A stretch of 64,000 nucleotides of DNA from Gammaproteobacteria bacterium (GTDB taxonomy: Bacteria > Pseudomonadota > Gammaproteobacteria > JACCXJ01): positions 5,484-69,483 of the forward strand of contig JBOIDL010000001.1 of NCBI GenBank assembly GCA_050740435.1, in the 5' to 3' direction. Below, in pieces: positions 27,469 to 54,387 of the stretch. The notes under the pieces are model-generated. The model was not told the DNA's origin. It did not search any database and was given only the letters and a program-made list of their open reading frames with translations. The position numbers were made by a program, and so were the translations under genes. The first letter of the stretch is position 1. Every line of letters starts with the position of its first letter.

Positions 27469-27611
27469 GGGAAGCTTACAAAAGTCACTGCGCAGCCCAT
27501 CTGCTTTGTCGCGTGCTCGCTCGTCGCTCGCCTATCTACCTGATATGTCTCGCGACTCGCTCCGCGGCTTCGCGCATCTGGGCTTGCTCGCGACACTTTT
27601 GCAGAGCTTCC
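27469..27611 (-). mobile_element. MITE-like element family A, full copy (about 143 bp) with imperfect terminal inverted repeats GGGAAGCTTACAAAAGT … ACTTTTGCAGAGCTTCC
   Basis: Its ends are inverted repeats of each other, and its core is the reverse complement of 951-1023. It is flanked by TTA on both sides (27466-68 and 27612-14), and the right TTA is the gltA stop codon (TAA, minus strand). Confidence 0.5.
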
Positions 27612-43438: not shown

Positions 43439-44452
43439 GTGATAGCGATGTTTCTCGACACGATGCCACTGAGAGTCTTCGAATATTGGAGTCGAGCCTG
43501 GACCACGGCCTTCACCTCGAGCGTCCAGGCCGCCACGGTGCTCGGGCAATCGCTCGATGCTTTAGCAATACATCAGCGGGACGAATGGAATCGGATCGTT
43601 TCCGCGGCCGCCGCGGAGCTTCGCCACACCTGGACGCAGTTCCGCCCGTACCACCGGTTGCAGCACGGCGCGCGAGTGGCTTTAGTCACCTGCGGAACCG
43701 GCAACATCGGAACGGCGATTTGTCTGCGGCTTGCGGACGCGGGTTTTTTAGTCATCGCCACGTATCCTCGCCACGAATCGGCTGCCGCGCGCCAATGGCA
43801 AGCGGCGAGACGCCGGGCCGCCTATGAACTTGGTATCGTCGCGTGTGATGTCGCGCGATGCGATGACTGCGCCAGTATGGCGAGATGGATCGAAGGTCAC
43901 TACGGTCACGTCGATATCCTGGTCAACTGCGTCGGCATCACCCGCGGCGACGGAAAACAAGAGAACTGGCAGACAGTTCTGGACACCAACCTCGACAGTG
44001 TATTCAATGTTACGCGTACCGTGATCGCGGCGATGACGGAGCGGCACTTCGGCCGGATAATCAATATCTGCTCGGTTAACGGGCCTCCTGGGCAATTCGC
44101 GCAAACCGATGTTGCGGCCGCCAAGGCGGGTATGCTGGGTTTTACCAAGTCCTTGGCTCGGCAGCTCGCGGATCAGGGGATCACCGTCAATACCGTATCA
44201 GCGGGATACGGGGCGGGCATGGTGGCGGAAATCCCGGATGAAATCCGCAAAGCGATTAAGGCGAAGCTTGCCAAAGGGCGATGGGGTGAGCCTGAAGAGA
44301 TCGCCGCCGCGGTCGACTTTCTCGCGGCGGACGCCAGCGGGTACATCACCGGAACCGACATCGCGGTCAACGGCCTACGGTTGACCTTGGATCCTGGCGA
44401 AGACAAAGGCGGCCTAAGGCCCCCCTGGCGGGGATTATCTCGGCCATCATGA
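43439..44452 (+). CDS. PhaB-like SDR paralogue with N-terminal 85-aa extension and degenerate catalytic motifs (predicted non-catalytic)
   Basis: Residues 90-330 align colinearly with the adjacent PhaB. However TGGTSGIG is replaced by TCGTGNIG, NNAG by NCVG, and NYTASK by DVAAAK (catalytic Tyr to Val). The unique N-terminal extension MFLDTMPLRVFEYWSRAWTTAFTSSVQAATVLGQSL… has no obvious family. Confidence 0.7.
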   Translation: MIAMFLDTMPLRVFEYWSRAWTTAFTSSVQAATVLGQSLDALAIHQRDEWNRIVSAAAAELRHTWTQFRPYHRLQHGARVALVTCGTGNIGTAICLRLADAGFLVIATYPRHESAAARQWQAARRRAAYELGIVACDVARCDDCASMARWIEGHYGHVDILVNCVGITRGDGKQENWQTVLDTNLDSVFNVTRTVIAAMTERHFGRIINICSVNGPPGQFAQTDVAAAKAGMLGFTKSLARQLADQGITVNTVSAGYGAGMVAEIPDEIRKAIKAKLAKGRWGEPEEIAAAVDFLAADASGYITGTDIAVNGLRLTLDPGEDKGGLRPPWRGLSRPS

Positions 44453-44504
44453 CGGCGATGATGTTTACGTAGACGATTGCTGGCCGCCGAAGGGCGCTCT
44501 CGCG

Positions 44505-44726
44505 CTAGCCATCCGTGATCTCGAGCCGCCGCTCAATGCGCTCTATGCGCGACTCGATTACACGAAAGCGATCGTTGCTCGCCGGAATCATGGCTACCAG
44601 CGCCGCAAGATGCTGCTCGACAGCAATCAGCCGGCTATCCATAAAACCGAGCTTCTCATTGACGCGATCGAGGCGGCCGCGGATCGCGCGGAGCTGCTCC
44701 AGCACCAAGTTTTCGGTTTCGGTCAT
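44505..44726 (-). CDS. Small coiled-coil protein, unknown function
   Basis: 73 aa, heptad-rich (…LEQLRAIRGRLDRVNEKLGFMDSRL…IESRIERIERRLE…); the MITE-B copy lies 30 bp upstream of its start. Confidence 0.35.
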   Translation of the reverse strand: MTETENLVLEQLRAIRGRLDRVNEKLGFMDSRLIAVEQHLAALVAMIPASNDRFRVIESRIERIERRLEITDG

Positions 44727-44759
44727 AACGATAGCAGGCCTCCTTTTACGGTCCGCTGA

Positions 44760-44902
44760 GAGTTTGCGAAAAAACCGTCGCGAGCGAAGGGAGGTCGCGT
44801 TCCGCCGGAGCGCAGGAACCGGAGTGTATGTTGGAATACATGAGGATTCCGAGCACCGCCGGAATGCGAGATCCCGAGTGCAGTAGGTTTTTTCACAAAC
44901 GC
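44760..44902 (+). mobile_element. MITE-like element family B (143 bp) with about 17-bp terminal inverted repeats GAGTTTG(C/T)GAAAAAACC and 3-bp target duplication TGA
   Basis: About 93% identical to the reverse complement of 51492-51634; perfect-ish TIRs; TGA at 44757-59 and 44903-05. Sits between the pckG stop and the small coiled-coil gene start. Confidence 0.65.
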
Positions 44903-44916
44903 TGATGTCCGTCCTG

Positions 44917-46767
44917 CTACGTAGCGCTAGCGAAGCTCAAGTCCCAAACGGTAGGTGAGTGATGGAGGCGGGATAGCAGTAACTCTCTCTCGATTTCCAT
45001 CTCGCGCGGGAGATGATCTCCGAAACGCGTGAATAGCTCCTCTTGATCGTTCGCTTCCTGCCGCGCCCGCTCCCGGTCGATGTTCATGATCTCGTAGAAG
45101 CGATCTCTTGAAAACTCGATGCCGTCCAAGACTAATTCCTCGAACGGCGGCACCCAACCGAGGGGGCTCTCGACACCACGCGCCCGCCCGCGACAGCGGT
45201 CGACCACCCATTTCAGCGCCCGCATGTTTTCACCGTAGCCCGGCCAGATGAACTTGCCCTTGTCGTCTTTACGGAACCAGTTGACGCGGAACACCAAGGG
45301 CGGGGTAGCGACGCGCTGACGGCCGATACGCAGCCAATGCTTCCAGTAATCCGCCATGTTGTAACCGCAGAACGGGAGCATCGCCATCGGATCGCGCCGC
45401 ATCCCGGCCTGGCCCACGGCGGCGGCGGTCGCTTCCGATCCCATGGTCGCCGCGAGATAAACCCCATGTTCCCAGTCGTAGGCCTGCAGAACCAGTGGGA
45501 AGTTCTTACTGATACGCCCGCCGAAGATAAAGGCGCTGATGGGTACGCCGTTCGGGTCCTCCCAATTCGGATCGATCGACGGGCACTGATGGGCCGGCGC
45601 CGTGAAGCGCGCGTTCGGATGCGCCGCCGACGTGCCACTACCGGGTGTCCAGTCGTTCCCTTTCCAATCGATGAGATGCGCGGGCGGCTCCTTCGTCATC
45701 CCTTCCCACCACACGTCGCCGTCGTCGGTTAACGCGACGTTACTGTAAATGCAGTTCTCTTTCAGGGTTAGCATGGCATTGGGATTCGAATCCATGTTGG
45801 TGCCGGGCGCCACGCCGAAATACCCCGCTTCGGGGTTAATGGCATAGAAGCGGCCGTCCGCCCCGGGTTTGATCCACGCGATATCATCCCCGATGGTCGT
45901 TACTTTCCATCCATCCAAGGCCTTGGGCGGGATCAGCATCGCAAAGTTTGTCTTGCCGCAGGCGCTCGGAAAGGCCGCCGACACGTAGGTCTTCTCGCCG
46001 GCCGGGGATTCGACGCCGAGGATCAGCATGTGCTCGGCCAGCCAGCCTTGGTCGCGCGCCATCACCGATGCGATGCGCAGCGCGAAACACTTCTTACCGA
46101 GTAAAGCATTTCCGCCGTAGCCGCTCCCGAATGACCAGATTTCACGCGTCTCTGGAAAGTGCGTGATGTATTTGGTGTTATTACACGGCCACACGGCATC
46201 TTCCTGATGCGGCTGCAAGGGTGCGCCGATCGAATGCAAGCACGGTACGAAGTCGCCGTCCGGCCCCAGCACATCGAGAGCGGCCTGACCCATGCGGGTC
46301 ATGATGCGCTGATTCACCGCGACATAGGCGGAATCGCTGATCTCGACCCCGATATGGGAAATGTGCGATCCGATGGGTCCCATGCTGAAGGGAATCACAT
46401 ACAGCGTGCGGCCGCGCATACAACCCTGGAACAACTCAAGGAGTATGCCGCGCATCTTTTGCGGCTCCATCCAGTTATTCGTGGGGCCGGCATATTCCTG
46501 CTTTTCGCTACAGATGTAGGTTCGGTCCTCGACGCGCGCGACATCGGTCGGGTGAGAGCGCGCCAGAAAGCTATTCGGCCTCTTCTTCGGGTTTAAGCGG
46601 ATAAAGGTTCCTTTTTGCACCATCTCTTCGCATAAGCGATCGTATTCCGCCTGAGAACCATCACACCAATAGATGCGCTCGGGATTGCAAAGGCCGGCAA
46701 TCTCTTCCACCCATTGCAACAGCCGTTTGTTTTTTGTCCTCTTTGCTCCGTCGTGTGTCATCGTCAT
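44917..46767 (-). CDS. pckG: Phosphoenolpyruvate carboxykinase (GTP)
   Basis: 616 aa; GTP-PEPCK signatures (…FPSACGKTN…, kinase-1a motif, …WMAEHMLIL…). Confidence 0.9.
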
Positions 46768-46965
46768 GAATGCAACCTCTAATCTTCAGTTACGTAAAAG
46801 ATAATTTCCTGTTGTCACCGCAAACGCGTATTTTTTTTTGCATTTTACCGCGCCGGTCTCGCCTACGTCACGCGCTTCCTTGTCGTCTCGTGTTGACCGG
46901 CACGCCGCCTCACAGTAAGCTGCTTTTGATCCCCCGGCTTTTTACTTATCCACCGTCAACGACGA

Positions 46966-47352
46966 TTGATACCAGGAGATAAGTGTATGCAGCGAGAAAT
47001 GATCGACCAATGGGCCGCCTTGAGCAGAAGCGCCCTCGATTCCATGAAAGAGCTTGGTGCAATCAATGCCAAGCTATTGGAGAAAATGACGGCGCAGCAG
47101 GAAGCAATCCTCAGCACTTGTCTCGAGGCAAGCGCCAAGGAGGTGAATTTGATTAGCGTTGCTAAGGACCCGAAGGAATTACTGGCGCATCAAGCCGCTC
47201 TGGCCTCCGAATACGGCGCCAAGTTCGTCGAGATCGTCCGCGGCACCAACGATCTCCTCAGCGAGTGCAAGAATGAACTGAGCGCTTGGGCGGAACGGGG
47301 CATGGAGAAAACCGTCGCGCCGTTTGCCGACAAACCCGCGAAGGGCAAATAG
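46966..47352 (+). CDS. phaP: Phasin-family PHA granule-associated protein
   Basis: 128 aa, all-helical, phasin_2-like pattern (…LEKMTAQQEAILSTCLEA…); location in the PHA locus. Confidence 0.7.
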   Translation: MIPGDKCMQREMIDQWAALSRSALDSMKELGAINAKLLEKMTAQQEAILSTCLEASAKEVNLISVAKDPKELLAHQAALASEYGAKFVEIVRGTNDLLSECKNELSAWAERGMEKTVAPFADKPAKGK

Positions 47353-47539
47353 ACTCGCGATAAAAAATTCAATCATTGGCGTTACGCGACGTCATGCTCA
47401 CGGTCGTGGAGCAAGGGTTTCGTAGCTTGAACGGCTACGTTCTGTTACCGACTTGACAGTGAGATTTAGCCATAGTATGGTGCAGAGCAGCATTGCGATG
47501 TGCAATGCACAACGTCGGTAAATTTCGTGAGGTAACGTT

Positions 47540-47917
47540 ATGCAATTTGAAACTATGGAGCCTTGGGCTCAGTTTGGCAGCACCTGCTTTGCTTCTCTAA
47601 AGGAACTAGGCGAGATCAGCACCAAGACGTTCGAGAAGTTGGGCGAACAGCAACTCGGCCTGGTAAGCACCTATGTTGATACCGGTATCAAGGCCGTAAC
47701 CTTGATGACCGAATCGAAGGGTTATAAGGATCTCTTGGCGGGCCAAACCAAGCTCATGACCGAATACAATGAAAAGGTGCTTGACGCCGTGCGTAAAACC
47801 ACCGAGATCATGACAGATTCCAAGGATGAAATGGCGGCTTGGTTCGAGAAGACCCAGGAGAACGGGACCGCGCCGGTAAAGAAAGCCGCGCTCGCGGTAA
47901 AGAAAGCAACCGCTTAG
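47540..47917 (+). CDS. phaP: Phasin-family PHA granule-associated protein (second paralogue)
   Basis: 125 aa, same architecture as 46966..47352 (…FEKLGEQQLGLVSTYVDTGIKAV…). Confidence 0.7.
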   Translation: MQFETMEPWAQFGSTCFASLKELGEISTKTFEKLGEQQLGLVSTYVDTGIKAVTLMTESKGYKDLLAGQTKLMTEYNEKVLDAVRKTTEIMTDSKDEMAAWFEKTQENGTAPVKKAALAVKKATA

Positions 47918-47944
47918 CCTTTTCCCGATCACCTTTTTAGACCC

Positions 47945-47974
47945 GATCCACCCCGGAGGTGGATCCGGTTTTTT
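47945..47974. terminator. Rho-independent terminator (likely bidirectional) between the phasin gene and convergent phaC
   Basis: GATCCACC-ccgga-GGTGGATC stem-loop followed by cgg TTTTTT. Confidence 0.5.
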
Positions 47975-47998
47975 GCGAATAGCGTTCTTGGCGCGGTC

Positions 47999-49060
47999 TT
48001 ACCGGGCGGCGAGCCAGGATTTGACCGCGGGAGGGATCATCTGCTGCGCTTTGCCGCTCACATAGATCCCGATGTGTCCGCCGGGAAATTCGATCTCCGA
48101 ATAATCCGCGTTTCCCACGTATTTCCTTAACGCCTTCGAGGCAGCGGGTGGGACCAGGTGGTCGTCAGTGGCGAAGATGTTGAGCACCGGCATGGTGATG
48201 TTTTCGAGATCGACGTTTTTCTCACCGATCATCACCTCGCCTTTAATCAGCTCGTTATTCTGATAAAAATGTTTGATGAACTCCCGGAATGCTTCCCCCG
48301 CTTGATCGGGGCTGTCGAAGATCCACTTCTCCATGCGGATGAAATTCTTGCACAACACCGGATCGTCCAGGGTGTTGACCATATCGAGGTATTTTTGTCC
48401 CGAGAGCCGGAACGGTTTGAGCGATAGAAAGGTCCAGTTCAGCATCTCGCCCGGGATATTACCCATGGTCTCCGCCAGCAGATCGATGTTCACCTTCCGG
48501 ACCCAATGGCTGAGCAAATCCTGGGGCGTGTGGAAATCGACCGGTGTCACAGTGGTTATGAGATTCCGCACTTTATCGGCATGCATCGCGCTATAGCAAA
48601 GGCTAAACGTTCCCCCCTGGCAGATCCCCAAGAGATTAATCTTGTCCAGGCTATACCGTTTCCTGAGCACCTCCACGCAGCGATCGATGTAACCGTTGAT
48701 GTAATCGTTTAGTGATAAAAACCGATCGGCGCTGTCGGGATAACCCCAGTCGATCAAATACACATCGAGGCCGCCCGCCAGCAGTCCGCGCACGAGCGAA
48801 CGGTTCTTCTGTAAATCCGCCATGTAAGGGCGGTTAACAAGTGCGTATACGATCAGCACCGGCACCGGGTTCAGCTTCTCCACGAGCGGCTTAAACCGGT
48901 AGAGCGTGAGCTTGTCTTCGGTGTACACGGACTCTTTGTCCGTACACCCGACGTCGATATCACCGATTTCGTTCAGCGTCTGTAAACCTCGGCTGAGCTT
49001 AGCCCCGAACTCTCGGATTTCGAATAGGGCTTGATCCGGACGTATTTGAAATGGAAACAT
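47999..49060 (-). CDS. phaC: Class III PHA synthase catalytic subunit PhaC
   Basis: 353 aa; very close in sequence and length to the Allochromatium-type PhaC (MFP…RPD…; lipase box GICQGG; …DHLVPP…; …GGHIGIYVSGKAQ…). Confidence 0.9.
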   Translation of the reverse strand: MFPFQIRPDQALFEIREFGAKLSRGLQTLNEIGDIDVGCTDKESVYTEDKLTLYRFKPLVEKLNPVPVLIVYALVNRPYMADLQKNRSLVRGLLAGGLDVYLIDWGYPDSADRFLSLNDYINGYIDRCVEVLRKRYSLDKINLLGICQGGTFSLCYSAMHADKVRNLITTVTPVDFHTPQDLLSHWVRKVNIDLLAETMGNIPGEMLNWTFLSLKPFRLSGQKYLDMVNTLDDPVLCKNFIRMEKWIFDSPDQAGEAFREFIKHFYQNNELIKGEVMIGEKNVDLENITMPVLNIFATDDHLVPPAASKALRKYVGNADYSEIEFPGGHIGIYVSGKAQQMIPPAVKSWLAAR

Positions 49061-49063
49061 GAG

Positions 49064-50359
49064 CTATGCCCCCTTGCCGCGCTTTTGTGCGGTTTCGGCG
49101 CGCGCCGCCTGCTTGGGCCTAGGTCCGGCCACGGCAACCACGCCCACGGCGGACGCCGTTCTCTTCGCCGGGATTCGCTCGCCGCGGCCTTCGCGCCCCG
49201 TACCGTTGCGAAGCGCCGCCAGATCCTTCCGCAACCGGGCGACGTCGCGTTCCAGCACCGTGACCTTCTCTCTCATGTCCTCGATGCTTTCGGCTTGGGT
49301 GCGCTCCTTTTGCGTGAGGCCGTTCAGCGCCTCTGCCTGAGATCTTAACCGCGCCTGCATTCCTTCCATCACGCTCGGATCGAATAGCGATCGAAACCCC
49401 GCGATCTCGCGCCGCAATTCCTGCTGCCGCCGCTGTACGGTCGTGATCCCTTGGTGGGTCGGCAAATTCAATGATCCCGCGACTTCATCAACGGCGGTTT
49501 GGTTGTGATGCTTCAACGCCATTAGCGCGTTGACCAGCCGTGCGTAAATGTCGGCGTATTCTTCCGTGAACACAAAAGCGCTGTACGCCTCTTCGCCACA
49601 ATCGACCCACAGATCATAGACCTCTCGCAGGGTATTGATTTCCTTGCCTTGCTCCGCGCGTTCGATGATCTTGGCGGCCAGCCGTTCGAGTGCATCGACC
49701 CCGAGCCGTCCGTGCGCATGCAAGTATTCCTGAAGCGCCTTTTGGTAACCCATGGTGAGACGCACGCCTCCCTGAGTTTGCTCTTGCCATTCGCGCATAT
49801 AGCCGACCGCGGGGACCGACAAGACCTGATCCATGCGTTCGCGGATCTGGCCCGCGACGCCGCCCAAACCCTCGGGTTTCACCGACCGTAAGAAATCACC
49901 GGGCAGCAACGAGCTGCTCGAGAACATGCGCGACCAGGTGTCCATCGGCATTTCGAAAAACGGTAGCAGGCCGCGCAAGGCGCTGGTCACGTCCGAAGCG
50001 CTGCCGTGAGTGAAACCCGCTTTCAGTTCATTGAGCTTGGCCGCGAACAGATCCTTCCAGTTCGATCCGGCCTGCGCGCCTTCGGCCAGGTTGCGTGTCA
50101 GCTTGCTGAACTCCTCTCCTAGGCGCAGAAAGGTCTTTCCTTGCCGCACGATACTTTGAAAAAAGTCCTCTCCAGCTGCCGGGGCGGCAGGCGCCGCGGT
50201 TTTTGCCCACAGATCCAAAGCCGCCGTCCACGGAACCGCGAACGCTTGGGAGCTAGTCGATGGCTCCATGGAGTGCCTTAAAATATGTGACCAGGCGTCC
50301 CAAAAATTTTTCTGCGATGCCATCCAATCGTCTTTCGAGACGGGGCTACTATCAGTCAT
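49064..50359 (-). CDS. phaE: Class III PHA synthase subunit PhaE, with extended Arg/Ala-rich C-terminal tail
   Basis: 431 aa; N-terminus MTDSS…DDWMASQKNFWDAWS parallels the PhaE N-terminus; sits directly upstream of and co-oriented with phaC. Confidence 0.85.
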   Translation of the reverse strand: MTDSSPVSKDDWMASQKNFWDAWSHILRHSMEPSTSSQAFAVPWTAALDLWAKTAAPAAPAAGEDFFQSIVRQGKTFLRLGEEFSKLTRNLAEGAQAGSNWKDLFAAKLNELKAGFTHGSASDVTSALRGLLPFFEMPMDTWSRMFSSSSLLPGDFLRSVKPEGLGGVAGQIRERMDQVLSVPAVGYMREWQEQTQGGVRLTMGYQKALQEYLHAHGRLGVDALERLAAKIIERAEQGKEINTLREVYDLWVDCGEEAYSAFVFTEEYADIYARLVNALMALKHHNQTAVDEVAGSLNLPTHQGITTVQRRQQELRREIAGFRSLFDPSVMEGMQARLRSQAEALNGLTQKERTQAESIEDMREKVTVLERDVARLRKDLAALRNGTGREGRGERIPAKRTASAVGVVAVAGPRPKQAARAETAQKRGKGA

Positions 50360-50582
50360 GGTTCACGCAACCTCGGCTTGTTCAAAAACATTCTCCGATT
50401 CCTCGCCACACTTGGCTATTATTGCATTGCACCATGGGCGAAGCAATGTTTACCGGATAAACGGCCGCGCTTCGCATCTCGATGGCCTGAACCATGCCGG
50501 TCACGGTAGGCGCGCATTGTCTCGCTCGCGCGATGCACGGTTATAATGCCAAGAAAATCTTACCTTAAGGACGGACACGCCC

Positions 50583-51491
50583 ATGCAAGTAGAACGCGCG
50601 ACGGTCACGGCGATCGAAACAGCGCCGTGGGCCCGTAACTGGCTTAACTGCTTGCCGCTGTACCTGTTGCCTCACCACGCCTTGTCGCGCTTGATGCTGG
50701 TTGCGACACGCCTGCGTTTTCGACCGTGGAAAGATTGGCAAATTCGGTGGTTTATCCGCCGTTACGGGGTCGATATGGACAGCGTGGCCGAATCCGATCC
50801 GCGCGTCTACCCGGAATTCAATAGCTTCTTTACCCGCGCGCTCCGAGCCGATGCGCGCCCGATCGCGCCCGACCCTTGCTCATTGGCGTGCCCCGTCGAC
50901 GGTAGCGTGTCCCAACTCGGCGATCTCCGAGACGGGTCGTTGCTCCAGGCCAAAGGACAGCACTACAGTGTGTCCGGTCTGCTGGCAAGCATGGAGGCGG
51001 GAGCGTTCTTGGGGGGGCATTTCATCACCTTGTATTTAGCCCCGAGAGACTACCATCGAGTGCACATGCCAGTCACCGGGCGCCTGGTCCGATCGGTTCA
51101 TGTGCCGGGGCGCTTGTTTCCGGTGAAACCCAGCACGGTCCTGGGAATAAACGATCTCTTTAGCCGCAACGAGCGCATCGTTTGCCTGTTCGAAACCCAC
51201 GCAGGCCCGCTTGCGCTCATCATGATAGGCGCCATGTTCGTGGGCGCGATGGACCTTGTGTGGCGCCACGGTGGTGCGATGCACACGGCCGCGCGTCGTA
51301 TCTGCGTCTACGAACAACCCGAATCCTGCCCGGTGATCCTAAATCAGGGCGAGGAGATGGGCCGCTTTAACATGGGATCAACGGTCATCCTGCTGCTCGG
51401 GCCGGGCGCGATCCGCTGGTCGAAAACACTGCAACCCGGTACGCCCGTGACGATGGGGCAATCCATCGGAACCCTCGCCGGCCTGGGCTAA
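50583..51491 (+). CDS. psd: Phosphatidylserine decarboxylase proenzyme
   Basis: 302 aa; PSD motifs (…FFTRALR…, LGST cleavage/pyruvoyl site GSTV in …FNMGSTVILL…). The TAA stop at 51489-91 doubles as the left flank of MITE-B copy 2. Confidence 0.85.
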   Translation: MQVERATVTAIETAPWARNWLNCLPLYLLPHHALSRLMLVATRLRFRPWKDWQIRWFIRRYGVDMDSVAESDPRVYPEFNSFFTRALRADARPIAPDPCSLACPVDGSVSQLGDLRDGSLLQAKGQHYSVSGLLASMEAGAFLGGHFITLYLAPRDYHRVHMPVTGRLVRSVHVPGRLFPVKPSTVLGINDLFSRNERIVCLFETHAGPLALIMIGAMFVGAMDLVWRHGGAMHTAARRICVYEQPESCPVILNQGEEMGRFNMGSTVILLLGPGAIRWSKTLQPGTPVTMGQSIGTLAGLG

Positions 51492-51634
51492 GAGTTTGTG
51501 AAAAAACCTACTGCGCTCGGGATCTCGCGTTCCGGCGGTGCTCGGAATCCTCATGTATTTCAACATACACTGCGGTTCCTGTGCTCCGGCGGAACACGAA
51601 CTCCCTTCGCTCGCGACGGTTTTTCCACAAACTC
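51492..51634 (-). mobile_element. MITE-like element family B, second copy (143 bp), inverted relative to the 44760-44902 copy; 3-bp target duplication TAA
   Basis: TIRs GAGTTTGTGAAAAAACC / GGTTTTTCCACAAACTC; flanked by TAA (51489-91, the psd stop) and TAA (51635-37). The lptF stop codon (TAG, minus strand) spans the junction at 51634-36. Confidence 0.65.
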
Positions 51635-52731
51635 TAAGCCAACGCCTCGCGCCGGAACTGCCGCGCCCACCGCTTGCGCAAGAGCGGATAACCAAGGAGT
51701 GCAAGGATCACAAGGCCTAAGAGCGCATGCACCCACCATAAACCCAGATACACAGGCACGGCGCCCTGCTCGGCCAAGGTCTTCGCGATCCCCAAGAGAT
51801 TGCTGTAAGTGAAATAAATCAAGACCGCGCTCAAGAGCCCGAGGATCCGGTTCTGGTCAGATGCCGCTCGCACCAGCGCCACCGCGAGGAGCGTCAACAG
51901 CACGGTACTGATCGGCATTGCGATTCGCCACTGCAACTCAGCGGCCGCCTCCGGCGTGTTAGCCGACCACAAGCTTGCGGTGCTCGCCGCGCTCGCGCGC
52001 TCGCTCCCGTCCGCCGCCTCACTGCGGTCGATACGCACGCCGTATTTCTCGTACTCGACAATGGAATAATCGAGCCGTCCCGGGGAGCCCATATAGCGGC
52101 GCCCGGCGTAAAAGTTCACATAGCGAGATCCGGTTTTCTGGTCGAGCTCGATTTCCGCTCGGTCAGCGGCAAGCACCCCGAGGTGGCTGTCTTGCCGCCC
52201 TTGCAGGAACACATTGGACATGCTGCGCTTGTCGGGAGACAGCCGCTCCACATAGAGGATGCGGTTACCCTCATTGAAATCCTTGAATTGCCCCGGCGTG
52301 ATCCCGGTCAGGTCGGATTCCGATTTGGCCCGGTTTTCCACCTCAATCAAGCGCGCTTCCGCCCACGGCGCGACCGCGAGCGCGAGGATCGCGACGAGGA
52401 GCGCCACGGCGAAAGCAAGTCTGGCCGCCGTATCGAAAAGAAACCGCGAGCCCAAGCCCAAGCTTGCGATGGCGATAAGCTCGTTGTCGCGCGACAGCCG
52501 GTTCAAGGCGACATAGACGCTAATGTAGTGGCACAAGGGCAGCATCAGTACCAAGGAGTTCGCTATCTTTAAGGCCAGCAGCTCGAAGATCAGTCCGCTG
52601 TCGATCTTTCCGGCGGCAGCCGTCGCCAGGTACTGCGCGAAGCGGCTGCTGGCGTAGGTGAGTAATAGCAGGAGTTGCACGGCCCCGAACCACAATAAGA
52701 TCTCCCGGATGAGGTAGCGGTTTAACAGCAT
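51634..52731 (-). CDS. lptF: LPS export ABC transporter permease LptF (YjgP/YjgQ family)
   Basis: N-terminus MLLNRYLIREIL… (LptF/LptG-type start), 6 TM helices with a large periplasmic loop, divergent from pepA as in E. coli and Pseudomonas. Start trimmed to the ATG at 52729-31; the longer ORF begins at a GTG. Confidence 0.75.
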   Translation of the reverse strand: MLLNRYLIREILLWFGAVQLLLLLTYASSRFAQYLATAAAGKIDSGLIFELLALKIANSLVLMLPLCHYISVYVALNRLSRDNELIAIASLGLGSRFLFDTAARLAFAVALLVAILALAVAPWAEARLIEVENRAKSESDLTGITPGQFKDFNEGNRILYVERLSPDKRSMSNVFLQGRQDSHLGVLAADRAEIELDQKTGSRYVNFYAGRRYMGSPGRLDYSIVEYEKYGVRIDRSEAADGSERASAASTASLWSANTPEAAAELQWRIAMPISTVLLTLLAVALVRAASDQNRILGLLSAVLIYFTYSNLLGIAKTLAEQGAVPVYLGLWWVHALLGLVILALLGYPLLRKRWARQFRREALA

Positions 52732-52872
52732 GAGGATGCCCGTGCGCTTTGCTTTGCGGTATCGATAACAATACACTTGCTCGCCAAGACGCGATTCACC
52801 TTGATAATACGCGCGTTACCATTGAATTGCCGATTTCGCTTCGAGCGTTAACTATAACAGCATAGGGGGGCT

Positions 52873-54387
52873 ATGGAGTTCGCCATCATAAGCGGTGCGC
52901 CGGATAAACAGCGGGTTCCTTGCGTGGTAGCCGGGGTGTTCATTAAGCGCAAGCTTGCGGAGACGGCGGCGCAACTGGACCAAGCCAGTCACCATTACAT
53001 CAGCCGCATCATGAAGCGCGGTGATCTCGAAGGGCGATGCGGCCAAACCTTGATGCTGCATCAGATACCGGGCACGGCGGCCGAGCGCATATTACTCATA
53101 GGATGCGGGCCGGAGAACGAGCTGTCCGACAACAAGTATCGCGAGATCCTCGCCAAGGCGGTGACGACATTAAACGACGCGCGGGTGATCGAAGCCGTGA
53201 GCTACCTCGCGGAGATCCCGATCCCGGATCGCGGCCTCGACTGGAAGGTGAGGCAACTGGTGGAGGCCGCCGAGAGCACCCTCTACCGCTTCGATCGGCT
53301 GAAAAGCAAGCCTGACGCGTCCGCGGCGGCCCTTCGCTCGCTGCGGATCGCGATCGCAAAACCGCGCGCCGCGGCGGCCGCCGAAGAGGCTTTAAGAGAT
53401 GGCCGAGCCATCGCCGAGGGGGTCCGTTTGGCGAAGGATCTCGCCAATCTGCCGAGCAACCACTGCACCCCGGCCTATCTCGCGGATGAGGCGCGGCGGA
53501 TGCAGAAACGCTACCCGGCGTTAAAGGTTGCGGTCTTGGGGGTAGCGCAGATCAAGAGGCTCAGGATGGGAGCCTTCCTGGCGGTAGCTCGCGGCAGCCG
53601 CGAGCCTCCGGCGCTTATCATCGTGCAGTATCGGGGAGCGCGCGCGGCGCAAGCCCCGGTGGCCTTGGTCGGCAAGGGGATCACCTTTGATTCGGGTGGC
53701 ATTTCGATCAAGCCGGCCGCCGCCATGGATGAGATGAAATACGACATGTGCGGCGCGGCCAGCGTCCTCGGGACACTGCGGGCCGTTGCCGAGCTGCAAT
53801 TGCCGATCAACCTCGTCGGCCTCATTCCGGCGACGGAAAACATGCCCGGCGGTAACGCAGTGAAGCCTGGGGATATTGTGACTAGCCTCTCAGGCCAGAC
53901 GATCGAAATCCTTAACACCGACGCCGAAGGGCGGCTCGTTCTTTGTGATACCTTGACCTATGCCCGACGCTTCAAGCCCGCGGTGGTCATCGATATCGCG
54001 ACTCTGACGGGCGCCTGCGTGGTCGCCTTGGGTCAGCACGCCTCGGGGCTCTGGAGCAATCACGAGCCCTTGGCCGCGGCCTTGCTCGCCGCGGGCGGAC
54101 AGAGCGGCGATCGGGCTTGGCAACTGCCGCTTTGGGAGGACTATCAGAAACAGCTCGACAGTTCCTTCGCGGACTTCGCCAACGTCGGCGGCCGCGAGGC
54201 GGGTAGCATTACCGCCGCGTGCTTTCTCGCGCGCTTTGCCAAGGATTTGAAATGGGCGCATTTAGACATTGCCGGAACCGCGTGGCGTACGGGAAACAAG
54301 AAGGGGGCGACAGGCCGTCCGGTGCCGCTGCTCGTTCAATACCTGCTTGACCGGGTACGCAAGCCCGACGACCATGCCCCGGGTTGA
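52873..54387 (+). CDS. pepA: Leucyl aminopeptidase
   Basis: 504 aa; M17 peptidase signature NTDAEGRL, begins MEFAIISGAPDKQRVPCVVAGVF. Confidence 0.9.
   Translation: MEFAIISGAPDKQRVPCVVAGVFIKRKLAETAAQLDQASHHYISRIMKRGDLEGRCGQTLMLHQIPGTAAERILLIGCGPENELSDNKYREILAKAVTTLNDARVIEAVSYLAEIPIPDRGLDWKVRQLVEAAESTLYRFDRLKSKPDASAAALRSLRIAIAKPRAAAAAEEALRDGRAIAEGVRLAKDLANLPSNHCTPAYLADEARRMQKRYPALKVAVLGVAQIKRLRMGAFLAVARGSREPPALIIVQYRGARAAQAPVALVGKGITFDSGGISIKPAAAMDEMKYDMCGAASVLGTLRAVAELQLPINLVGLIPATENMPGGNAVKPGDIVTSLSGQTIEILNTDAEGRLVLCDTLTYARRFKPAVVIDIATLTGACVVALGQHASGLWSNHEPLAAALLAAGGQSGDRAWQLPLWEDYQKQLDSSFADFANVGGREAGSITAACFLARFAKDLKWAHLDIAGTAWRTGNKKGATGRPVPLLVQYLLDRVRKPDDHAPG

Follow-up and report, generated by a model that had tools for sequence, protein, structure and literature searches.

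A 64,000-nucleotide stretch from the genome of a Gammaproteobacteria bacterium (GenBank assembly GCA_050740435.1, contig JBOIDL010000001.1, positions 5,484 to 69,483 of the forward strand; called the window in the following) carries two inverted copies, A and B, of a 143-bp repeat, one on either side of a block of polyhydroxyalkanoate (PHA) genes. Both repeats are very probably fixed copies of a non-autonomous transposon with terminal inverted repeats, a MITE (miniature inverted-repeat transposable element) specific to Gammaproteobacteria of the USC-gamma type (upland soil cluster gamma), which were inserted independently from each other and left the PHA block unrearranged. The element shows the features by which a MITE is recognised: it is shorter than about 500 bp and has no transposase gene, it ends in terminal inverted repeats, its target-site duplication is of fixed length, its copies are dispersed, and filled as well as empty sites exist. 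The kind of element is well known, the family is new. Our literature search found no mention of MITEs or transposases in USC-gamma genomes.

Two copies of a 143-bp element

Copy A occupies positions 44760–44902 on the plus strand, between the convergent genes phaB2 and pckG, and is 95.1% identical to the family consensus. Copy B (51492–51634, minus strand, 96.5% identity to the consensus) is located between psd and lptF, which also are convergent. Both end in the 17-bp inverted repeat GAGTTTGYGRAAAAACC, beginning with GAGTTTG at both ends. In copy A the left repeat GAGTTTGCGAAAAAACC covers 44760–44776 on the plus strand and the right one, read on the minus strand as GCGTTTGTGAAAAAACC, covers 44886–44902; in copy B the repeats are GAGTTTGTGAAAAAACC (51492–51508, plus strand) and GAGTTTGTGGAAAAACC (51618–51634, read on the minus strand), base 51634 being shared with the lptF stop codon, as its third base. 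Each copy is enclosed by a 3-bp target-site duplication of its own. For A this is TGA at 44757–44759 and 44903–44905, the latter 11 nt before the pckG stop codon, and the counterpart at the empty site has a single triplet. For B it is TAA at 51489–51491, which is the stop codon of psd, and at 51635–51637, and here too the empty site was seen in relatives. The pattern GAGTTTGYGAAAAAACC has four matches in the 64 kb, all of them at element ends and with 0–1 mismatch; in shuffled sequence 0.19 matches to the terminus pattern are expected when up to 3 mismatches are allowed.

The two copies are identical at 133 of 143 positions (93.0%) and differ at element positions 8, 10, 35, 39, 53, 63, 75, 106, 120 and 142; the longest uninterrupted identity is 30 bp. 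They have no derived change in common, apart from a single site where the family as a whole is polymorphic. Gene conversion or a common origin of A and B was rejected, as each copy has private substitutions. From the end of A to the start of B the distance is 6,589 bp (44903–51491, flanking triplets counted). Apart from read-through frames of 48 codons the element has no open frame, and no transposase gene is present. A profile of the family run over the window detected no third copy or fragment. Thus, the description given in a preceding sequence-only reading of the window, two inverted 143-bp copies with 3-bp duplications TGA and TAA, about 93% identity and 17-bp terminal repeats (0–1 mismatch here) around a segment of 6.6 kb, was correct in coordinates and flanks.

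Filled and empty sites in related genomes

Orthologous loci (given L numbers here) were found via the orthologues of Psd and of phosphoenolpyruvate carboxykinase (PEPCK, encoded by pckG). They belong to four sister lineages with 92–96% DNA identity in psd and pckG. Site B is exactly empty in L064, L069, L070, L071 and L192, where the sequence reads GAGC-TAA-GCCAACGCC; this form, seen in SD8037 bin.6, in GCA_975305705.1, in two Logan contigs and in a 715-kb contig (L192), corresponds to the left flank of the window, a single TAA and the right flank of the window (GAGC-TAA-GCCAACGCCTCGC). Site A is exactly empty in L192 and in five contigs of the USCg_Taylor lineage (L193–L197), which have CAGGACGGACA-TCA-GCGGAC with a single triplet. 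Empty counterparts such as a transposition event predicts were therefore found at both loci.

An orthologue of copy A exists at the same position in SD8037 bin.6 and GCA_975305705.1 (L058/L069/L070), and the substitutions G142, G63, G75, T106 and T120 are private to it and to the window copy. Copy B was otherwise found only in GCA_050740555.1 (L001), in identical form; this contig overlaps with the window over 47033–53815 at 98% identity. The SD8037 lineage has no counterpart of B. Since A is present in both the window and the SD8037 lineages and B is not found in the latter, A predates their split and B is younger. Judged from these comparisons, A and B are independent insertions made at different times. 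The independent transposition with duplication of a TNA triplet, which had been proposed from the window alone, is borne out by the exact empty sites at both loci and by the perfect duplications in the family described below.

The USCg_Taylor lineage has a rearranged element of 97 bp at the psd-lptF junction (L066 3598–3697; also L067 and L068), and in L064, whose psd is 97.8% identical to that of USCg_Taylor, site B is empty. This implies that the same C-TAA-G was struck at least twice, and the 97-bp element looks like a second independent insertion at this site that was followed by a deletion. The 97-bp element matches the MITE over the left 43 nt, has a right end similar to the terminus GATTTCTTCACAAGCCC of a second family (see below) and unequal flanks (TAA and TCA), and 39–46 nt of native spacer are gone.

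The genes around the two sites are arranged as phaA, phaB, phaR and phaB2 (forward), pckG (reverse), two phaP genes (forward), phaC and phaE (reverse), psd (forward), lptF (reverse) and pepA (forward). Order and orientation are the same in L192, which has neither copy, in L069/L070, which have only A, in L001, which has B, and in the window, which has both. Even a relative with a Psd of only 61% identity has kept phaP-phaP-phaC-phaE-psd, with no element. The same order with none, one or two copies shows that the block is ancestral and was not brought in by the elements. In another relative, whose PEPCK is 89% identical, the genes are arranged differently, and site A is without an element. In this genome, SD8035 bin.2, a gene of 847 residues with no Pfam match is located between phaC and the phasin genes (L198 6136–8679, L199 90–2633), and psd is not adjacent to phaE.

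Distribution of the family and its target site

We scanned 185,579 species-representative genomes, requiring both termini at the correct spacing. This yielded 62 loci, of which 59 are copies of the family. They come from 10 metagenome-assembled genomes (MAGs) labelled Gammaproteobacteria or Chromatiales, with 32 copies in H1-B1 bin.5, eight in SD8037 bin.6, six in MGR_bin175, four in another MAG, three in USCg_Taylor, two in a further one and four singletons, one of which sits on a contig binned as Terriglobia. These counts are lower bounds, because only copies with two intact termini were counted and many contigs break off within a copy. Among the hosts is 'Chromatiales bacterium USCg_Taylor', the MAG of an Antarctic methanotroph of the upland soil cluster gamma. 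When metagenomes of the Joint Genome Institute (JGI) were scanned with one terminus, at least 120 loci were obtained, with further copies mostly from the sample series Ga01366xx. Altogether, sites of the family were found in USCg_Taylor-related MAGs and in desert or Antarctic metagenomes, and the GC content of its host genomes is 0.58–0.65. Further copies elsewhere are what the interpretation as a MITE had led to expect.

The copies are 92–100% identical to the consensus, those 32 of a single MAG 97–99%, which points to recent activity of the family. At 59 of 66 distinct insertion sites there is a perfect 3-bp duplication of the form T-N-A; with the elements oriented alike, the triplet is TGA in 38, TCA in 18, TAA in two cases and TTA in one. 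In the first 61 genome copies, the base at -4 is C in 51 of 61 and the base at +4 is G in 45 of 59, so that the target is the near-palindrome C-TNA-G. The flanks of different sites are otherwise mutually unrelated, and the 17-bp termini are near-invariant over 62 copies.

The USC-gamma methanotrophs, which oxidise atmospheric methane, have not been cultured, and what is known of them comes only from fragmented MAGs. With dozens of copies per genome, a 143-bp repeat accounts for many of the contig breaks; at least 29 metagenome matches and several MAG contigs end inside a copy. In addition, the filled and empty sites can be used as a ready-made strain marker. The practical value of the finding is small but real.

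Association with stop codons

Open reading frames (ORFs) of at least 100 codons that end within 16 nt of a copy were surveyed for the position of their stop codons. In 15 cases the stop lies exactly on the duplicated triplet (offset 0), in 18 on the TGA inside the terminus (GAGTTTG-TGA) and in four at other offsets within ±16 nt. The third frame is open through the element up to the far triplet. Six copies have convergent ORFs of at least 100 codons on both sides, as it is the case for both copies of the window. TGA and TAA fit the pattern TNA, and so do their complements; duplication of the triplet gives the stop back, and a second frame is closed by the TGA of the terminus. The simplest reading of these positions is a combination of target choice and purifying selection. 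The family therefore illustrates well, in a natural setting, why stop codons gather insertions of some transposons: when C-TNA-G is duplicated as TGA or TAA, the stop is formed anew.

Both copies of the window had been said to sit exactly on stop codons, which holds for two of the genes concerned and for one of the copies. The stop TAA of psd is the left duplication of copy B. The stop TAG of lptF is the reverse complement of 51634–51636 and consists of the last base of the element and two bases of the duplication, but it came into use through a deletion: about 60 nt that are present in L069, L192 and L066 are missing from the window (at 51638–51670, the 3' end of lptF), among them the original lptF stop (TCA on the plus strand), and because this stop was taken away the ORF extends to the TAG at the junction of copy B. 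Copy A, in contrast, does not sit on a stop codon in the window. The TGA beside it ends the phaB2 ORF in the SD8037 lineage and none of the current genes of the window, and the pckG stop (44917–44919), reported before as 12 nt from the copy, has a distance of 11 nt to the duplication and of 14 nt to the element.

Proposed mechanism and its missing partner

Each copy entered a site 5'-C-TNA-G-3' whose central three bases were duplicated. Copy A was inserted in the gap that separates the convergent genes phaB2 and pckG, 11 nt beyond the stop of pckG, before the lineages of the window and SD8037 separated; copy B followed later, into the stop codon TAA of psd, which at the empty site overlaps with the opposite-strand TAG where the lptF ORF of the window now ends. 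Mobilisation probably occurred in trans, by a DDE transposase making 3-nt staggered cuts, and its most likely source would be an insertion sequence (IS) of the IS5 family, IS1031 type, binding the 17-bp termini GAGTTTGTGAAAAAACC. The copies may persist at gene ends because an insertion would be harmless there and the duplicated TGA or TAA restores the stop. They would be transcribed into the 3' ends of the neighbouring mRNAs as a long hairpin, with presumably secondary effects on these mRNAs.

An IS5/IS1031-type transposase, suggested already in the sequence-only reading, is plausible from the duplication and the termini. In the family table of ISfinder, the termini of the IS1031 group begin with GAG. 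The MITE has GAG-beginning termini at both ends as well as the 3-bp TNA duplication (59 of 66 sites), and a three-nucleotide insertion site has been reported for the IS1031 group (PMC2516522). These two points of the suggestion fit, but no autonomous element with the same termini turned up in about 1.2 Mb of loci.

Further support for mobilisation in trans comes from variants of the element. The same termini and TNA flanks are found on deletion forms of 50, 54 and 89 bp and on elements of 108, 158 and 273 bp with unrelated interiors. Nested forms of 188–254 bp, equally flanked by TNA, contain additional hairpin modules, one or two in number (of about 66 and 45 nt), in either arm of the 143-bp backbone (L114 5010–5263, L162 1563–1816, L078 2474–2682, L138 3368–3555, L126 2803–2996). 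A second MITE family with the termini GAGCTTGTGAAAAAATC has the same subterminal arms, and its apex consists of heptamer repeats, (GGAGACT)n in one arm and (AGCCTCA)n in the other (L030 4698–4920, L053 203–379). Varied interiors between the same termini are as expected if a trans-acting transposase recognises the termini.

Several results weigh against our interpretation. No IS5-type transposase motif was detected in about 1.2 Mb of loci; this negative is weak, since the patterns were strict and also missed the IS1182-type transposase of L152, which is confirmed by Pfam. Matches to the terminus at contig edges all continue as MITE sequence, and no partner appeared among the metagenome matches listed, where one may have been missed. 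The only transposase-bearing elements with the 17-mer are IS1182-type elements of 1.75 kb, from hosts with a GC content of 0.40 and with flanks other than TNA. Finally, the ratio of 38 TGA to 18 TCA is not explained by a symmetric insertion mechanism. According to this ratio (binomial p 0.01), the orientation of the element correlates with the central base of the target, which could be due to the mechanism or to selection relative to gene direction.

The partner was also searched for in other ways. Pairs of termini at a distance of 0.04–3.5 kb included none at IS-like spacing in GC-rich contigs, among the matches listed. Inspection of orphan termini and their adjoining ORFs revealed no autonomous partner; neither did a scan of viral contigs, with two probable chance matches, nor a blastn search of plasmid records.

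It is conceivable but unlikely that the mobilising transposase is from outside the IS5/IS1031 group, for instance of the IS1182 type, or that the partner has since been lost from these genomes. This is suggested by the fact that no IS5-type partner was found and by the six 1.75-kb elements (L152 58–1806; also in L075, L154, L159, L160 and L186), one end of which is exactly the MITE 17-mer GAGTTTGTGAAAAAACC and which encode a transposase of 528 amino acids with DUF772 and DDE_Tnp_1_6, in Pfam terms of IS1182 type. However, they reside in hosts of GC content about 0.40 and the MITE in genomes of 0.58–0.65, they have a different sequence, CAGACTGTGAAAAAACT, at the other end, they are flanked by ACG(N) and not TNA, and a 3-nt insertion site is what has been reported for the IS1031 group (PMC2516522). 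We therefore rejected the 1.75-kb element as a direct partner on account of its low-GC hosts, its differing other end and the absence of TNA flanks. These elements may be taken only as a sign that this type of terminus belongs to the IS4/IS5/IS1182 superfamily, and an IS1031-type source remains our preferred one.

A possible role as RNA

The element folds from end to end as a single imperfect hairpin (z-scores of -6.5 to -10.7), and over 62 copies 99.1% of the cells are paired. One might therefore think of copies that were co-opted as RNA elements, with A6-hairpin-T6 at the 3' ends of pckG, psd and lptF acting as bidirectional terminator, mRNA stabiliser or RNase target. Read from either strand, the hairpin is long and stable, A6 and T6 tracts flank its inner part, both copies are located between convergent genes, and copies of the family cluster at ORF ends. 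Four pairs show double changes, compared to 1.0 ± 0.6 in shuffles; moreover, the apical core is kept in distant hosts and has a sub-threshold match to sX9, an expressed small RNA (sRNA) of Xanthomonas, and precedents exist with the ERIC elements of Yersinia and the Correia elements of Neisseria (PMC2229807, PMC10969869). However, we consider such a role doubtful. A consensus terminator scan called neither copy, the T tract pairs with the A tract in the outer stem, and canonical intrinsic terminators are much shorter than this hairpin. Furthermore, site A in the empty state already had a GC hairpin and T run of its own, relatives lack elements at both sites, and the covariation signal is small and could be produced by subfamily ancestry. 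The narrower possibility of an intrinsic terminator was rejected, as a simple scan flags neither element.

The PHA block between the copies

In the sequence-only reading it had been proposed that the inverted copies allow an inversion of the PHA synthase-phasin module by recombination or its mobilisation as a composite unit. The geometry in principle permits an inversion of the 6.6-kb block, the copies being inverted and 93% identical. For efficient RecA-dependent exchange, however, 30 bp of identity is at the lower limit and thus marginal, and this is the length of the longest identical run of A and B. An inverted block was not found in any of the assemblies of relatives retrieved; the orientation is the same throughout, with none, one or two copies. 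Likewise, a composite transposon should have a common outer duplication, but each copy has its own (TGA or TAA), and the block sits at one locus in all these relatives, with or without elements. Considering also that the insertions are of different age and that no gene for a site-specific recombinase adjoins either copy, it is highly improbable that the copies act as a unit, and neither form of the proposal could be upheld. Neither insertion has to do with the other or with the PHA genes. With these results, the attractive idea of a PHA-synthase module that could be switched or moved is set aside as unsupported.

That the copies are native conserved intergenic structures such as terminators or repetitive extragenic palindromic (REP)-like sequences instead of mobile DNA, as their palindromic, intergenic nature and position at gene ends might suggest, has practically no probability left, being refuted by the exact single-triplet empty sites at both loci in relatives of 93–96% nucleotide identity, beside the perfect duplications at 59 of 66 sites and the unrelated flanks at different sites.

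Genes and other repeats of the window

The gene calls were checked by NCBIfam, which confirmed the gene names given earlier. The gene phaB2 (43439–44452, plus strand) codes for a short-chain dehydrogenase/reductase (SDR) of the acetoacetyl-CoA reductase type and pckG (44917–46767, minus strand) for the GTP-dependent PEPCK. Two phasins (both phaP), a class III PhaC and PhaE are encoded between pckG and psd (50583–51491, plus strand; Psd). The gene lptF (51634–52776, minus strand; LptF) comes next, and beyond it lies the gene for leucyl aminopeptidase (pepA).

Upstream of copy A, the window has an insertion of 311 bp (44425–44735) that is without a counterpart in SD8037 bin.6 (L058/L070) and GCA_975305705.1. 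Its place is the loop of a terminator-like hairpin rich in GC, AAAGGCGGCC-TTA-GGCCGCCTTT, which follows just downstream of phaB2, and AGGCC is found at either end of the insertion. The hairpin is split by the insertion, and the C-terminus of the phaB2 ORF is altered. The insertion contains an ORF of 73 codons (44505–44726, minus strand) with a GGAGG ribosome-binding site, to which Pfam gives only weak, coiled-coil-like matches; a piece of 57 nt is 88% identical to a site in L042.

A second interspersed repeat of 85 nt, unrelated to the 143-bp element, occurs at 941–1025 and 27509–27593; the two copies are 96% complementary. It is found elsewhere at 92–94% identity in L066, L104 (two copies) and L122, and at 78% in L041, and probably is the repeat named 'MITE-A' in the sequence-only reading. 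Furthermore, there is a tandem array at 242–538 with a period of 27/9 nt, comprising about 11 overlapping copies of the 99-nt unit CGAGCGGATTGAACG.

Comparison with known elements

The points of interest in this family are the relationship between C-TNA-G and stop codons, the modular variants, the missing autonomous partner, and an apical core that is conserved with repeats of distant Gammaproteobacteria. It resembles IS5/IS1031-derived MITEs in being small and non-coding, in its 17-bp terminal repeats beginning with GAG, its 3-bp duplication, its near-identical copies and its insertion polymorphism. It differs in that C-TNA-G and the preference for TGA/TCA are known from the present data and not from a described IS, and in that no autonomous partner was found for the 143-bp element.

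When the consensus was compared by blastn to plasmid records (7.3 Gb), its central 50 nt matched Aeromonas caviae in five places (86% identity, E value 1e-6; L202), and there was another match in the xylA-xylB spacer of Yersinia (L203). The Yersinia element in turn matches a stretch of about 122 nt that occurs in each of the 5,426 complete Escherichia coli genomes, with five places per genome as the median, one example being the pyrH-frr spacer (L204/L206). A profile of the MITE scored 33.8, 28.2 and 21.2 bits with these repeats in nhmmer. Like the MITE, they form one long imperfect hairpin of about 140–150 bp and are intergenic; they are located between genes of one transcription unit, and their apical 70 nt or so (CAGGAACCGGAG.GTA…TAC.TGAGGATTCCGAGCA) are 80–86% identical to the MITE apex. 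In contrast, their outer arms and termini have another sequence (GTCTGGTTATAAGGC in E. coli), the copies examined show no evident TNA duplication, and the copies are few and old. In the current K-12 record the pyrH-frr repeat is not annotated; judged only by its length and copy number it probably is the 'RSA' repeat of the original K-12 annotation, which has 150/151 bp and six copies (PMC5172473). The 143-bp element appears to be distantly related to this under-described family of gammaproteobacterial palindromes.

Due to the Yersinia match we also suspected a membership in ERIC. This was rejected, as the MITE profile had no nhmmer hit in an ERIC locus and pairwise blastn gave E > 1. Nor is the E. 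coli pyrH-frr repeat an ERIC element: the 44-mer core of ERIC, which matches at 100% in E. coli with a median of 10 places per genome, is not detectably similar to it. De Gregorio and colleagues reportedly found in 2005 that the sequence duplicated by ERIC is the dinucleotide TA and that those ERICs which overlap stop codons are biased in orientation. ERIC (or IRU), an element of Enterobacteriaceae, is a MITE-like palindrome of about 127 bp at gene ends that is co-transcribed with its neighbours and affects mRNA stability depending on orientation (PMC2229807, PMC10969869); TA at the termini and target-site duplications have been described (PMC2229807). As a MITE-like palindrome at gene ends it works in general similarly to the 143-bp element, which, however, has a 3-bp TNA duplication and not TA. 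The Correia elements of Neisseria (NEMIS/CREE) likewise are an abundant MITE, present as a hairpin in transcripts and often beside genes, whose copies vary between close strains (PMC2229807, PMC10969869). They differ from the family described here by their TA target, termini of 24–26 bp, unrelated sequence and another host clade, and a role of RNase III has been shown for Correia.

Among Rfam families, RF02228 (sX9) aligns to both copies of the window, along one arm between the apical loop and the subterminal GCTCGCGACGG. The scores are 25.3 and 27.1 bits, and the Yersinia repeat reaches 40 bits, all below the gathering score of 44; at this threshold Rfam reports only a tRNA for the window, and by this criterion the copies are not members of sX9. 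This family has been described not as a transposon but as a 75-nt transcript, an sRNA of Xanthomonas (PMC3300014), and it ranks with the sRNA families that are annotated most often in bacterial genomes (PMC9029176), as would be expected if sX9 is a repeat.

One may go further and regard the apical hairpin of about 70 nt as an old, functionally constrained module, such as a processed sRNA or a binding site for a host protein, that is common to the MITE, the repeats of Aeromonas, Yersinia and E. coli and the Xanthomonas sX9 and is carried on transposon backbones with different termini. We regard this as a long shot; if true, the MITE would be a vehicle for conserved cargo and not a plain deletion derivative of an IS. 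Independent of such a function, the link of the 143-bp element to the enterobacterial repeats and to sX9 suggests that repeats and 'sRNAs' which so far were catalogued separately may represent one old family of elements.

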